DNA of 64,000 nucleotides from Candidatus Borrarchaeum weybense (GTDB lineage: Archaea; Asgardarchaeota; Sifarchaeia; Borrarchaeales; Borrarchaeaceae). Below the pieces are notes generated by a model. That model was not told where the DNA came from, did not search any database, and saw only the letters and a list, made by a program, of their open reading frames with translations. The DNA is taken from the NCBI GenBank assembly GCA_019057385.1, contig JAHQJS010000007.1, forward strand, positions 651,685 to 715,684, given 5' to 3'. Of this stretch, positions 3,460 through 17,419 are shown one piece after another. Each line of letters opens with the position of its first letter. Within the stretch, counting starts at the first letter, position 1. Both the position numbers and the translations under genes were made by a program.

Positions 3460-4990
3460 CTCCCGCCTCTGGAAGCCCCTACCCTTTAGGGTGGGGAGGA
3501 AAGAGGCGTTTAGACTAACTTAAGTTAAAAAATAATCCTTTCCCATATTTAACCAACTCTACTTTTTTGATAGCTACGCTTTTGTCTTTTCCATTAACAT
3601 TTTTTAAAATAACTCGCTTTCCAAGACAATGAGTCCCTTTTACTCTATACGTTCTACCCTCAAACTTTACAAGATCATACGGTTGTAACGGGTATCTCTG
3701 TCTTCTAATAGACGGTTTGAAACCTTTTCTATTCAATTGGAGTGAACGATTATTGCGCCGCACCTGAATAACCTCATACGGTCTACACCGTGGTTGTGTT
3801 GTGCCTCCCGCAATGACAAACGCATCATTAACATGCGACTTTTCCAGTCCTAAATTGTTACGCTGGTATTTGGTGACGTATCCGTAAGTATGCTCTGCAC
3901 CTAACTGTTCTACTAGCCTCCAACGAATGTTATTAATACATGCTGGTGCTTTAAGTGGCGTCTTTGCCTGCTTTTGTATGTGTGGATAGCCAAACTCCTC
4001 TGCGGTCTTATCTCCCTTCTTTAGATTACAGTTCCTACATGATATCGTCAAATTCGACACTCGGTCTGTGCCACCTCTACTTTTCGGGACGATATGCTCG
4101 ACTTCTAAGGGCACGTTTGTGTTACCACAATAGGCGCACTTTCGTCCCCACTTATCCAATAGATATTCTTTGACTTCGTAGCCCTGTAGCTCGCCCTGCT
4201 GATATGCTACGCCTGTAATTTCTGGATGTCGCATTTTCTGTGTGTCGAAATTCGCAGTCTCTATCCTTTTGTAAGTTATAGGAAGTAGCGTTGCAAGTGT
4301 TTCAACTAATCGAATATGTGAGTCATGCCTATGCTGAGTACTAGGGGCTAACCATCCTTCAGGACGTTTACGATTATCAAATCGAGGTGGGCGATACCCT
4401 AATCTGCCTCTACGCGTTCTACGATACCTCCGCTTTTCTTCAAGCTTGTTAGACACATCCTTGCGCAAGTTTAACGTCCCACTGATGACTTCTAACGTAT
4501 CGGTCTTGGCACTAAATCCAATATTCGTAAATCCGATATCCACTCCTAATTTAATCAGTTGTGTCGCCTCTCCAGTGGCATAGTTCAACTGAATGGTGAA
4601 AGGACACCGTTTTACAACTGTAGCCTTTCCTTCTTTTAACAACCTCTTTCCGTTATGTTGTGTGGTAGGCATGAGCGGTTGCCCCCTCATGTTTACCACA
4701 TAGATAGGTACTCTCAAGTCCTATCTCCTCCTTTAACTGATGTTAAAGTCGGTTGGTTCTCTTCGCCAAGGTTATCAGTCAGTACTCTACGATGATCACT
4801 GAGCGTTTCCTCTCTGTTTAAACCACCGTTTACAGAGCAAGGGACTAGAGAAGCATCCCTTGGTGTGTTCTTTAACTCTCCTGATAACGTAGATACCGTC
4901 ATACACTATATGACCTCTCTTAGGCTAATCAACTAATTGCTCTCAGGTCTCACGACCCAAGCCCCTACCCTTTAGGGTGGGGTAATTGAC
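3460..4990 (-). mobile_element. IS200/IS605-family IscB element (no tnpA)
   Basis: Same subterminal hairpin gcccctaccctttagggtgggg at ~3475 and ~4961; minus-strand end GTCAATTACCCC at 4990; boundary near 3460 is approximate. Confidence 0.85.
3515..4717 (-). CDS. iscB: RNA-guided endonuclease IscB
   Basis: PLMP N-terminus, RuvC-I LGVDIG, RRYRRTRR bridge helix, RuvC-II IETANFD, HNH EVEHIVPKSRGG...NCN, RuvC-III SHVNDA. Confidence 0.95.
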   Translation of the reverse strand: MRVPIYVVNMRGQPLMPTTQHNGKRLLKEGKATVVKRCPFTIQLNYATGEATQLIKLGVDIGFTNIGFSAKTDTLEVISGTLNLRKDVSNKLEEKRRYRRTRRGRLGYRPPRFDNRKRPEGWLAPSTQHRHDSHIRLVETLATLLPITYKRIETANFDTQKMRHPEITGVAYQQGELQGYEVKEYLLDKWGRKCAYCGNTNVPLEVEHIVPKSRGGTDRVSNLTISCRNCNLKKGDKTAEEFGYPHIQKQAKTPLKAPACINNIRWRLVEQLGAEHTYGYVTKYQRNNLGLEKSHVNDAFVIAGGTTQPRCRPYEVIQVRRNNRSLQLNRKGFKPSIRRQRYPLQPYDLVKFEGRTYRVKGTHCLGKRVILKNVNGKDKSVAIKKVELVKYGKGLFFNLS

Positions 4991-12176: not shown

Positions 12177-13430
12177 TTGACTAAAGGGATGAAAATGTGT
12201 GCACATGTATTTCTTATAGTATGTGATGGAATGGGGGACCGTCCGATTGAAGAATTAGATGGAAAAACCCCTGTAGAATTTGCAAATACTCCATGGTTAG
12301 ATAAATTATCAGAAGTTGGAATTAATGGAATTATGCATACACTTGGTACACCAGGCATAGTTCCTGGGAGCGATACGGCACATTTAGCGCTTTTTGGATA
12401 TGATCCACATATCTATTATTCGGGCCGTGGAGCATTCGAGGCTTTAGGTGTAGGATTGGAAGTAAAGGAAGGCGATGTAGCGCTACGAGGTAATTTTGCA
12501 ACGGTTGATGAGAATTTAAACGTATTAGACAGACGTGCTGGACGATATGTTCCTGAAGGTGATCAACTCGCAGCAGTAGTCAATGGATTAAAATTACCGG
12601 AGGCTCCTGATGTCGAAGTGATAGCAAAACATGCTACTCAGCACAGATGCGCTGTTATTCTCCGTGGACCGGGATTAAGTCACAAGGTTACAGATACTGA
12701 CCCTCATGAGACTAATGCAAAAGTAAAAATTGCTAAACCTTTAGATGATAGTGAAGAAGCACAAAAAACGGCAAATATCATTAATTCATTATCAGGAAAA
12801 TCCCATGAACTTCTCAAAGACCATCCATTGAATAAACAACGTCAAGAACGTGGAGATTTGCCTGGAAACATCATTATTCTTAGAGGTGCAGGGCAAGTAC
12901 CCAATGTAAAATCATTAACTCAGTTATATGGAATTAAAAGTGCAGTGATATCAACAAATGCGCTTTATCGGGGAGTTGCTCTAAGTATTGGAATGGAACA
13001 CCTTCCAGTCTCTGAAACAAAAGGAGACTATATCGTACTGGCAAAAAAAGCACTTGAGCGTTTCGATAACTATGATTTGTTCTTTATTCATGTTAAAGAC
13101 ACAGATAATGCCTCTCACGATGGAAATGCTGAAGAAAAGGTAAAAGTGATTGAACGCATTGATGAAATGATTAGTTATTTGTTCCCAAAAGTTGAAAGCA
13201 AAGAAGCGTATATCTGTGTAACTGCTGATCATACTACTTCAGTGAAAGCAAAAAACCATGTCGGTGACGATGTGCCAGTCGTTATAGCGGGTCCAGAAGT
13301 CCGTAGTGATTCTGTTAAGTCATTTTCAGAGAGAGCCTGTGCACTGGGAGGGCTTAATAGAATTCGAGGCATAGATATTATGCCTATATTAATGAGTTAT
13401 CTAGAAAAGACACCCATGTTCGGCTCATAG
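12177..13430 (+). CDS. apgM: 2,3-bisphosphoglycerate-independent phosphoglycerate mutase, archaeal type
   Basis: DGMGDRP, GKTP, PGSDTAH, GRGAFEALG, DNASHDG, TADHTT. Confidence 0.92.
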   Translation: MTKGMKMCAHVFLIVCDGMGDRPIEELDGKTPVEFANTPWLDKLSEVGINGIMHTLGTPGIVPGSDTAHLALFGYDPHIYYSGRGAFEALGVGLEVKEGDVALRGNFATVDENLNVLDRRAGRYVPEGDQLAAVVNGLKLPEAPDVEVIAKHATQHRCAVILRGPGLSHKVTDTDPHETNAKVKIAKPLDDSEEAQKTANIINSLSGKSHELLKDHPLNKQRQERGDLPGNIIILRGAGQVPNVKSLTQLYGIKSAVISTNALYRGVALSIGMEHLPVSETKGDYIVLAKKALERFDNYDLFFIHVKDTDNASHDGNAEEKVKVIERIDEMISYLFPKVESKEAYICVTADHTTSVKAKNHVGDDVPVVIAGPEVRSDSVKSFSERACALGGLNRIRGIDIMPILMSYLEKTPMFGS

Positions 13431-14595: not shown

Positions 14596-14740
14596 TTTAA
14601 ATTACTTTTTAGTTCTAAATAGAAAAAGGAAAGCTAAGAGCTCAAAAAAACTCTTAAAGTTGAAGAATTAAGTTGCTAATCTGATTTTAAGAAAAGCAAA
14701 AAAGAAAAAAGAGTAATTAAGAAAGATTTCATGCACACAT

Positions 14741-14944
14741 TTAACCTTTGATTGCTAGGTTAATGTCAGACATCATAACTTTCTTTCGTCCGGCGTGTTT
14801 GGCAAATCCGACCGCTTTCCTCGTGAGTATCTCACATTGTTCTTCAAGATAGTCAACGAGTTTCATTACAGCGCCCTTAGCTACCAATTTTGCGCCAGAT
14901 TCTTTCATAAGATCTCTAACTGGGGCAATTGCTAATCGAGCCAT
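14741..14944 (-). CDS. Archaeal histone (copy 1)
   Basis: HMf-like fold: AIAPVR.LMK..GA...AKHAGRKKV...D. Confidence 0.95.
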   Translation of the reverse strand: MARLAIAPVRDLMKESGAKLVAKGAVMKLVDYLEEQCEILTRKAVGFAKHAGRKKVMMSDINLAIKG

Positions 14945-15175
14945 AAAATCAACTCCACTTCAAAGAATGAACTGGTTTCATTCTTTCTGAAAAGTATTTC
15001 AGTCTTAAACCAATATATAAAGCTTCTGGTTGCCTCAACCAAGTTCCCCATTTAAAACTCATCATGAACTCGATACTCAACGAAAATCTTAATGATCATT
15101 ATAGTGCGCGCGCTATTGGAGGTAATCAGAGACTATAGCTATAATATAAGTATAATTCGAAGGCGACTTATTTGG
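14945..15175 (-). promoter_or_regulatory. Conserved histone upstream module, copy 1 (SD, 5' hairpin, TATA/BRE, palindrome, distal block)
   Basis: GGAGTTGA SD; hairpin 14962-14986; TTTATATA 15014-15021; TGGTTGCCTCAACCA 15027-15041; shared with copies 2 and 3. Confidence 0.75.
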
Positions 15176-15370
15176 GTGATGTGCTACACGCGCACAAACA
15201 TATAGTTCAATCAGAATCCACTCTTTAAGTCAATCACAATAGAATCAACTTTTCATAATATGTGTAAAAAATTGCTAGATTAGCTATAGGAAGATACGTG
15301 ATTAGCATAGCGGATTCTAAAATATAAAAAAAAAGAAAAAGGGGTATAAAGAAAGACTAGACACACACAT

Positions 15371-15574
15371 TTAACTTTTGATTGCTAGAGAGATGTCGGA
15401 CATCATAACTTTCTTTCGTCCGGCGTGTTTGGCAAATCCGACCGCTTTCCTTGTGAGCGTTTCACATTGCTCTTCAAGGTAGTCAACGAGTTTCAAAACT
15501 GCGTCTTTAGCTACCAATTTTGCGCCTGAGTCTTTCATAAGATCTCGAACTGGGGCAATTGCTAATCGAGCCAT
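15371..15574 (-). CDS. Archaeal histone (copy 2)
   Basis: Near-identical paralogue of 14741..14944. Confidence 0.95.
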   Translation of the reverse strand: MARLAIAPVRDLMKDSGAKLVAKDAVLKLVDYLEEQCETLTRKAVGFAKHAGRKKVMMSDISLAIKS

Positions 15575-15810
15575 AAAATCAACTCCACTTCGAAGAATGA
15601 ATTGATTTCATTCTTTCTGAAAGATCTTTGTACTATAATGACTATATAAAGCTTCTGGTTGCCTCAACCAAGTTCCCCAAATCAAGATACTCATGAACTT
15701 GGTGCTTATCGAAAATGTGGGCAGTCCATACCGCGAGCGCGTACTCGGAGTCAATCAGAGACAATAGATATTACTGAAATATTACCTCATAGCTACATAT
15801 TTGGATGACA
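15575..15810 (-). promoter_or_regulatory. Conserved histone upstream module, copy 2
   Basis: Hairpin 15593-15615, TATA ~15643-15650, palindrome 15656-15670, distal GAGCGCG...GGAGTCAATCAGAGAC block. Confidence 0.75.
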
Positions 15811-16064
15811 AAATATACCAACTTATGGCACGATTTAACCATGATTCCCATTTCTATTATTTTTCATCATAGAGAGTATCACTCAACAAATAACTCAAAT
15901 CCGTCTAACAATGAAAGCTCTACCTCAGAATAAGACTAAAATTTGCACAAAACTTTGGTTTAAATATCTAGCGAAAGCTACGCGAAGATAAATAACTAAC
16001 TTAATGAATTGCAGACACTAAAAAAAAGAAAAAAGGGTAGTTAAGAAAGATTCGACGCACACAT

Positions 16065-16268
16065 TTAACCTTTGATTGCTAGGTTAATGTCGGTCATCAT
16101 AACTTTCTTTCGTCCGGCGTGTTTGGCAAATCCGATCGCTTTCCTCGTGAGTTCTTCAACTTCTGCCTCAAGAAATTCAACGAGTTTGGATACAGCATCC
16201 TTAGCTACCAATTTTGCGCCAGATTCTTTCATAAGATCTCTAACTGGGGCAATTGCTAATCGAGCCAT
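16065..16268 (-). CDS. Archaeal histone (copy 3)
   Basis: Paralogue differing mainly in helix 2 (EFLEAEVEEL). Confidence 0.95.
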   Translation of the reverse strand: MARLAIAPVRDLMKESGAKLVAKDAVSKLVEFLEAEVEELTRKAIGFAKHAGRKKVMMTDINLAIKG

Positions 16269-16503
16269 AAAATCAACTCCACTTGCAAGAATGAATTGAT
16301 TTCATTCTTTCTGAAAGGTATTCAGTCCTAAGCCAATATATAAAGCTTCTGGTTGCCTCAATCCAACTCCTCATAATAAGACCATCATGAACTAAGTACT
16401 CATCGAAAGTTTTGGTATTCCATACTACGAGCGCGCAATCGGAGTCAATCAGAAACTATAAACATCACAAAAAACTTGATTCATTGATACTCATTTGGAT
16501 AAC
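16269..16503 (-). promoter_or_regulatory. Conserved histone upstream module, copy 3
   Basis: Hairpin 16287-16309, TATA ~16337-16344, imperfect palindrome 16350-16365, distal block. Confidence 0.75.
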
Positions 16504-16799
16504 CATATGCACATATTACCTGTAGAATTTAACATAAATTTTGTTTTTTTGGATAAAAAAATGCTTAGATCACTATTACAAAAAACAATCTGTTTCCTTT
16601 ACCGATTTCACTGAAAAAGGTTAAATCATTATTTAGAGCCATAAAAGCTTATCAGGATATCAATTGCAGTTTATATTAATTGAAAAAATTCTTCTAAGTG
16701 TTTTTAGTCTTTTTGTCATTACAAAGCGCGATAAAAAACTGTTTCTTTTGTGATTTTCTATTTTTTTAAAGTGTATGCTCTACTAAATTGTGTGTTGAT

Positions 16800-17044
16800 G
16801 TGAGCTACCTCGTACTAAAGCATCGAGGCTTCCTGCTTCTACGACAGACTCGATCCCCTTGTCGGGTTACGGAGGTCATATCTCCACAGGCTTAACATCC
16901 CTACGCCCCGTAGGTACGGTTAACCATCGTGATGCAATCGAAGTATGCACCTTGTCTACAAGTGTGCGTATTATCCCTCCAATTGCCGTTGATATCTCGT
17001 TATACCAACTATATAACTCTTAGGGAGACCCCTCGATCTAAGTG
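16800..17044 (-). mobile_element. ORF-less IS605-type element carrying a TnpB-type omega-RNA scaffold
   Basis: Minus strand: TTTAT|CACT...ACCGTACCTACGGGGCGTAGGG...AAGCCTGTGGAG...GAAGCAGGAAGCCTCG...GAGGTAGCTCAC, a typical tnpB right-end sequence. Confidence 0.7.
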
Positions 17045-17074
17045 ATAAAATTGAACACACATTATTGCAACTCA

Positions 17075-17419
17075 TCACCACGTTGAAACAGTGGTGCTTT
17101 CTTGCTCAGTTACTCGTAAAAAAATAGTTTCTTGCATTCTGAATAAAACGACTAACGTTCCAAAAACGGGGAAGATAGCAAGGATCAGAAACATTATGCG
17201 TATACCAAACATCTCAGCAATAATACCAGCTACTGTATTCACTCCATAGAATATCCCCACCATTATACTAGCCTGAAATAATGTAGCTCCAAGTGATTTT
17301 GCATAAAGAGGAATTATAACAACTGGAATTATTATCGAAAATGCGTAGAACCAGTTTACTGTGTTTATTGATAATAAGGAAGGATTAGAGTTATCTTTTG
17401 TTGAGTTCAATGTGCACAC
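17075..17419 (-). pseudogene. Internally deleted MFS transporter remnant
   Basis: MFS N-terminal motif PLYAKSLGAT...G joined directly to MFS C-terminal AGIIAEMFG...QET. Confidence 0.6.

Follow-up and report, generated by a model that had tools for sequence, protein, structure and literature searches.

An array of three histone genes in an Asgard archaeon with a candidate multi-site control module of fixed geometry upstream of each gene

The window analysed here is a stretch of 64,000 nucleotides from Candidatus Borrarchaeum weybense (G000:C7:651685-715684, where G000 is the source genome of 4.18 Mb in 8 contigs), and the system in question is an array of three histone genes lying head-to-tail on its minus strand. 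Histone A (16065-16268), the first along the direction of transcription, is followed by histone B (15371-15574) and histone C (14741-14944), with start-to-start distances of 694 bp from A to B and 630 bp from B to C. Each gene is an open reading frame (ORF) of 67 aa, and all three score above the cut-off of 21.4 bits for the Pfam family CBFD_NFYB_HMF (PF00808), with 42.0 bits for A, 41.1 bits for B and 35.1 bits for C. The three 67-aa histones spaced by 630 and 694 bp, reported in a preliminary description of this DNA made from its letters, were thus confirmed. The encoded proteins are 85-92% identical and are paralogs of one HMf-type single histone fold, the nearest solved relatives of which, in a comparison with the Protein Data Bank, are HPhA (E 7e-14, histone B) and HMfA/HMfB (E 1e-10 to 4e-11). 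KHAGRKKVMMSD is the same in all three proteins and fits loop and tetramer residues (the RKK/RKT motif, His ~49 and Asp ~59), as placed by eye on what we take to be the HMfB positions. Synonymous divergence (dS) between the paralogs of the array is 0.1-0.5 and mosaic along the genes.

Each gene is preceded by ~235 bp of DNA which carries the same blocks, in the same order and with the same spacing, in A, B and C. The three units can be aligned from ~-231 to ~+250 from the ATG, with a single gap column in the upstream part. From the distal end the blocks read CCAAAT, GTyTCTGATTGnCTCC, CGCGC, TATGG or TAATG, and TTTCGnT, followed by AGTTCATGA, TGrGGA and TTGAGGCAACCAGAAGC, which leads directly into the TATA box TTTATATA; the inverted repeat AAAGAATGAA-N5-TTCATTCTT, GGAGTTGAT, the gene itself, TAAATGTGTG, TCTTTCTT and an oligo-T tract complete the unit. 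On the minus strand, the control blocks b1-b8, from CCAAAT to TTGAGGCAACCAGAAGC, occupy 16345-16498 in unit A (-230 to -77 from the ATG) and, by unit alignment and conservation, 15651-15804 in unit B and 15022-15175 in unit C. A common order of blocks in each unit had been claimed beforehand, and all of the blocks named were found at equal relative positions, the invariant distal columns being clustered in runs of at least four (p = 0.004, column permutation). Past -240 the paralogs align like random DNA (40-45% identity), and the far-upstream spacers have no similarity to the module or to one another.

The TATA box, at -76 to -69 (16337-16344 in A, 15643-15650 in B and 15014-15021 in C, minus strand), is preceded by AGAAGC, which resembles a TFB recognition element (BRE), and this AGAAGC-TTTATATA combination of BRE and 8-bp TATA box is invariant in 17/17 units. 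In the element next to the BRE, only (A)TTG-N-GG-N-AACCAG is conserved over the 17 non-redundant units, its left arm being variable. A perfect TGGTTG-N3-CAACCA palindrome at the BRE is limited to some units, so that the TGGTTG-CCT-CAACCA palindrome of the preliminary description holds for B and C and fails as a general feature. At the distal end, CCAAAT and CAATCAG are invariant words, the latter lying on the strand opposite the genes and corresponding to GATTG on their own strand, and true CCAATCAG is confined to the clade of the related genome G001. A search for NF-YA (PF02045) gave no match in the genome and also matched nothing in its control genomes. Two possible internal repeats were considered, namely the similarity of TCTGATTG, in the distal part, to CAACCAGA, beside the BRE, when the latter is reverse-complemented, and the recurring word TTCAT; a rough count placed both at chance level, and they were kept as leads only.

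The array was found in all four other species of the Borrarchaeum/Sifarchaeum genus (G001-G004), as well as in five metagenome contigs recovered by a scan with the 18-nt BRE/TATA word, namely L154 (three units), L168 (A and B), L111, L162 and L174. The A-B-C order is identical in G002 and G004, A-B occurs in G003 and in the G001 clade, and the array of G001 is divided between two contigs. In public records the same array occurs under Candidatus Borrarchaeum yapensis, Candidatus Sifarchaeum marinoarchaea, Borrarchaeota archaeon and Promethearchaeota archaeon. Among 40 relatives, the upstream DNA of unit B matches only the arrays of the four congeners, with nothing convincing in 36 further Asgard genomes. 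Orthologs of histone A are present in G002, G003, G004, L111 and L154 and those of histone B in all congeners, and histone C is restricted to the G000/G002/G004 clade. The flank is syntenic, with an M50-AN1 peptidase gene adjoining the last unit; it stands after C in the window and directly after B in the G001-like contig L174, which indicates that the deeper-branching species carry a two-gene array.

These relatives allowed us to ask how the upstream DNA has evolved. Columns identical in A, B and C of G000 are 86-90% identical between G000 and its orthologs in G003 or the G001 clade, compared to 48-61% for the remaining columns. Invariance among the paralogs thus predicts conservation in independent lineages, and does so with the distal part alone (Fisher p 1e-5 to 5e-10). 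In a maximum likelihood tree of -240 to -95 the units are grouped by paralog class, with a support of 100/100 for C, and the number of label changes is minimal, being equalled in 0/200 label shuffles. This grouping indicates that the distal spacers are orthologous and have not been homogenised by gene conversion; the blocks that stand between these paralog-specific spacers are nevertheless invariant in 17 units.

The spacing is conserved along with the blocks, and there is one gap column in -240 to -1 across 11 units. We counted gap events, each a run of inserted or deleted bases, between G000 and G003, and found 7 in 911 bp of histone upstream regions, whereas 563 bp of ordinary intergenic DNA held 25 (p = 4e-6), or ~1 per 130 bp versus ~1 per 22 bp, which makes them 5-8 times rarer upstream of the histones, against a baseline of three intergenic regions, since 20 kb of the window gave little further G000-G003 synteny. 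Sequence identity between the same two genomes is 74-80% for the histone upstream regions, 67-71% for ordinary intergenic DNA and 58-65% for third codon positions of flanking genes. Synonymous divergence was considered as a neutral yardstick and dropped, the dS of the coding sequences being depressed and mosaic. At the level of aligned sequence, these comparisons show that the upstream blocks are held by purifying selection while the spacers diverge, and that insertions and deletions are excluded from the stretch. Of the two outcomes named beforehand as speaking against dedicated cis-elements, block conservation at the level of neutral decay is contradicted by the contrast of block and other columns, by the clustering of invariant columns, by the tree and by the gap events, and a lack of the array in related genomes by its presence in the congeners.

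The module is also specific to the array. Profile searches with nhmmer, using the distal, proximal, leader/untranslated region (UTR) and terminator parts, gave matches at the three units only in the 4.18 Mb, and mismatch scans with single blocks found them elsewhere in the genome at chance frequency. Being unique to the three units in the genome, and conserved across paralogs and five species, the blocks are indeed the dedicated cis-elements that the preliminary description had proposed, and they are maintained by selection. The scan for a regulon which it had called for bore out the specificity of the motifs for the array and yielded no further target genes. A fourth close histone paralog, on contig C4, has an unrelated upstream region, itself conserved among its own orthologs. 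The genome holds a fifth histone-fold gene (G000:C5:100564, L005), 45-48% identical to A-C, with a Lys/Ala-rich N-terminal extension (AKKKKAAPKRAASK...) and an uncertain start codon.

In contrast to the distal spacers, the proximal promoter (-95 to -1) and the coding sequence gave trees in which the paralog classes are mixed. The proximal promoters of G004_A and G004_B have an identity of 0.99 and those of G000_C and G002_A of 0.95, versus 0.81 for G000_A and G004_A. The A unit of contig L168 (562-765) is 100% identical to that of G001 upstream, and its gene encodes a B-like central helix (EGECE, not EAEVEE), which suggests gene conversion within the coding sequence. Contig L154 equals G004 at 100% in units B and C, and its A unit (12859-13306) is unconverted and 89% identical to G004_A, so that the converted, B-like A of G004 may reflect strain variation or a chimeric assembly. 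As read from these trees and identities, the proximal promoter and coding parts are shown to exchange sequence between copies by gene conversion, and the distal spacers are not.

A further constraint was seen upstream of unit B. Its far-upstream spacer (15805-16019, minus strand) is unshared with A or C, and its length is frozen between species, the distance from the stop codon of A to the ATG of B being exactly 493 bp in five species. Between G000 and G003 this spacer is 79% identical, with zero gap events.

Downstream of the TATA box, transcription is predicted to start near -44, at the CA of TTTCAGA, ~31-33 nt after the first base of the TATA box. The inverted repeat AAAGAATGAA-N5-TTCATTCTT, which is written as AAGAATGAA-N5-TTCATTCTT in the block list of the unit alignment for A-C, lies at 16286-16310 in A, 15592-15616 in B and 14962-14986 in C, again on the minus strand. 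It comprises 9-10 bp with a loop of 4-6 nt, starts 2-3 nt past the predicted start, and folded as a hairpin of -6 to -12 kcal/mol in 16/16 units. The two arms are sequence-conserved and show a single change that preserves pairing, close to the loop, and a role of this palindrome in the RNA is thus indistinguishable from a role in the DNA. The conserved Shine-Dalgarno (SD) region GGAGTTGAT follows at 16272-16280 in A, 15578-15586 in B and 14948-14956 in C (minus strand). A conserved 3' region of stop codon, ATGTGTG, TCTTTCTT and oligo-T terminator occupies 16020-16067 in A, 15326-15373 in B and 14698-14743 in C on the same strand. The 3' regions end in oligo-T, with folding energies of 0 to -1.8 kcal/mol that do not surpass those of shuffled sequences, and no 3' stem-loop was present in those of the array units. 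Pairing between the 5' and 3' UTRs (AGAAAGA with UCUUUCU) was considered and dropped, as it amounts to merely 7 bp with no covariation.

The explanation which we consider probable is that each gene of this partly concerted array has a histone-specific, multi-site DNA control module of fixed geometry, which is kept by selection together with the BRE/TATA core and the 5' palindrome. One or more sequence-specific DNA-binding proteins would dock on the approximately eight blocks at -230 to -77 and work there in a fixed spatial arrangement, and the element TTGnGGnAACCAG, which abuts the BRE, is placed where archaeal activators typically bind to assist in the recruitment of TFB and TBP. The invariant BRE/TATA core would start transcription near -44 and give a monocistronic mRNA of ~280 nt per gene, opening with the stem-loop and closing at the oligo-T tract. 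The stem-loop may act as a stabiliser of the mRNA or, as a DNA palindrome just past the start, as the operator of a repressor. As a net effect, the three histone variants would presumably be supplied in large amounts and in coordination.

Several points weigh against this explanation. The start was placed by the usual archaeal distance from TATA box to start, and is predicted rather than mapped. Transcription of the three genes is borne out by contigs from four metatranscriptome studies, which match pieces of each gene with identities of 95-100%, none of them spanning two genes. These RNA contigs end around -28 to -31 and 20-27 nt past the stop codons; they break at paralog divergence or T tracts and are thus uninformative on transcript ends or on silence of the spacers. 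The motifs stand before no other gene, so there is no regulon to back a classical regulator; no binding factor was found, the array has no linked transcription-factor gene, and none of the block motifs matches a characterised archaeal regulator. The dS of the genes is below the divergence of the spacers, so that it is no clean neutral yardstick. The B-specific spacer is frozen in length despite having no shared blocks, which a multi-site model leaves unexplained. Finally, the sample comprises one genus, with five species and metagenome contigs that are all related.

A more far-reaching form of the control module can be put forward tentatively, and we would not rate it as the probable one. In this form, Asgard archaea of the class would regulate histone supply through a histone-gene-specific, enhancer-like module, read by a dedicated factor or complex, which couples the variants to growth or replication. 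It would comprise approximately eight rigid sites reaching to ~190 bp upstream of the start, along with the 493-bp frozen spacer for unit B.

The exclusion of indels over 235-430 bp, the block-free spacer included, would also fit autoregulation of the histones by wrapping. Here the platform for a positioned multimer of the histones or of another chromatin protein would be the DNA upstream of each gene, which for unit B takes in the entire 493-bp spacer; the extent of the multimer would sense the free histone level and occlude or expose the TATA box, with the frozen lengths as its geometry. The array genes encode the wrapping protein itself, and the distances of 694 and 630 bp are both within 1 bp of whole 10.5-bp turns (chance ~0.08). 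However, neither G+C nor AT-rich dinucleotides show a 10-11-bp periodicity in this DNA, and hence there is no signature of rotational positioning. Furthermore, invariant words of 5-17 nt suit sequence-specific readers, and archaeal histones are not known to depend on such words for their positioning. We thus regard control by wrapping as unlikely, although it is the strongest of the alternatives to a multi-site module.

The leader of the mRNA could instead hold the main step of control, with the distal DNA being secondary. The 5' stem-loop would then alternate with sequestration of the SD and start codon, in the manner of a thermometer or under the control of a protein. In 10/16 units the 5' arm and loop can pair with GGAGUUGAUUUUAU over 9-13 bp at -9 to -13 kcal/mol, and this SD pairing has a z of -3 to -5 versus shuffles. 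In units A (16272-16310) and B (15578-15616), pairing of the 5' arm and loop with the SD and the AU of the start codon is the minimum-energy fold, with 13 consecutive pairs that unit C is unable to form, and in the G001 clade the pairing survives one double change from A-U to U-A. In contrast, unit C of the window and of G004 shows it weakly or not at all, and the same applies to both units of G003, to L174_B and to L154_A. The pairing missing from unit C and from G003 makes it a lead and not a conserved feature, and the selected distal blocks would not be accounted for by such a switch, which we consider improbable as the main step.

Strict length, and variable stretches among conserved words, may also point to structured RNAs, and the nearly symmetric TATA word could in principle fire both ways. 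The blocks could thus be conserved parts of a hidden upstream product, such as a small RNA, an antisense or divergent transcript, or a micro-peptide. The tests made on this DNA speak against such a product. On either strand, the distal consensus folds from RNAalifold reached just -6 to -7 kcal/mol, and their covariation term was positive, i.e. a penalty; Rfam 15, even at E = 1, matched nothing in 14600-17100. A hidden ORF is excluded by stops in all six frames of -240 to -45 in every unit, and the opposite-strand sequence upstream of the TATA box is unconserved. The B-specific spacer likewise holds no ORF, with stops in all six frames of every unit, and no RNA structure, as 19/63 predicted pairs are broken and minimum free energy z-scores are ~0. 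A hidden product is therefore very improbable. The sole Rfam match in the window, on the minus strand at 4752-4990, is a full-length HEARO RNA (RF02033, 129 bits).

The view that there is a core promoter only, and that the similarity is the leftover of a recent tandem duplication upheld by gene conversion, draws on the low paralog dS and on the conversion evident in the mixed proximal and coding trees, the 99% identity of the proximal regions of G004_A and G004_B and the B-like coding core of the L168 A unit, but it can barely be sustained against distal spacers that are unconverted across species with the intervening blocks invariant in 17 units, block columns that predict conservation in independent lineages, a duplication older than a species split at which third codon positions are ~60% identical, and the lack of any paralog alignment past -240.

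In G004 an IS605-type OrfB/TnpB gene (L023:1485-2543; Pfam PF01385, 50 bits) lies between an MFS gene and histone A, and the counterpart of this site in the window (16780-17049) is just a G+C-rich relic. The site upstream of the array seems to attract such elements.

Next to nothing is known of how archaea set the levels and proportions of their histone variants, and no paper on the cis-regulation of archaeal histone genes was found in the literature searched. The locus offers precisely delimited candidate elements, which sit in the archaeal group closest to eukaryotes, and it documents concerted evolution inside an archaeal histone array. The preliminary description had judged ~230 bp to be long for an archaeal promoter. 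This assessment stands, as the module measures ~235 bp, reaches ~190 bp upstream of the predicted start and is longer than the archaeal promoter architectures known to us, which it would exceed in length if it is a fixed-geometry activator platform.

Tandem or adjacent histone paralogs, up to a few hundred bp apart, were also found in other Asgard genomes, and the array as such is thus not unique. Genome G005 of the sister genus has two unlinked histone genes (L110, G005:C20 and L109, G005:C178) that share 175 bp of upstream DNA at an identity of 89%, versus 82% in the coding core; one of these histones has a lysine-rich N-terminal tail of ~45 aa, and its unlinked paralog is tail-less. Two histone pairs of one Asgard family, possibly Loki-type (L176, G173:C30 and L177, G124:C354), are 595 and 1034 bp apart, and their copies share patchy blocks upstream of the TATA box. 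Long upstream regions shared by paralogs thus recur in the class with different sequence and, as the shared region of the sister genus differs from that of the array, the cis-elements appear to turn over between lineages.

According to a review, archaeal histones, including those of Asgard archaea, are usually encoded in single-gene operons (PMC10919886). Like hmfA/hmfB of Methanothermus fervidus, HPhA of Pyrococcus and htkA/htkB of Thermococcus kodakarensis, the array genes encode a 67-aa histone fold, and they resemble archaeal HMf-type single-gene units in their BRE/TATA core and oligo-T end. In contrast to genes of the hmfA/hmfB type, there are three tandem copies with a fixed spacing conserved in the genus, ~150 bp of selected blocks above the BRE, and a 5' palindrome. 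Upstream activating sequences (UAS) next to the BRE are known from archaea, e.g. the Ptr2 sites of Methanocaldococcus jannaschii, the GvpE UAS of Halobacterium and the TFB-RF1 sites of Pyrococcus, and they span tens of bp. The element that abuts the BRE upstream in the array is placed like these, where activators recruit TBP or TFB, whereas the module as a whole has approximately eight blocks up to ~190 bp above the predicted start, with frozen spacing and no other targets in the genome. Stabilising stem-loops at the 5' end are likewise known from bacterial mRNAs (ompA), and repressor operators that overlap the start from archaea (MDR1, Phr and NrpR); the position of the array palindrome would fit either type.

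The preliminary description had been reminded of eukaryotic clustered histone genes. As in eukaryotic clusters, with the yeast Spt10 UAS as an example, each gene has its own promoter, the upstream elements are family-specific and the copies evolve in concert. In contrast to them, the array has one histone type, with no mix of H2A/H2B/H3/H4, no divergent pairs and no 3' stem-loop, and it terminates at oligo-T. With one histone type and no 3' stem-loop, the likeness holds as an analogy, and not as homology. The elements of eukaryotic histone promoters are described as turning over in a lineage-specific way (PMC1794435), which the apparent turnover of cis-elements in this class resembles. If the tentative enhancer-like form of the module is true, it would be an independent archaeal counterpart of the eukaryotic histone-gene UAS, with lineage-specific turnover of its elements.

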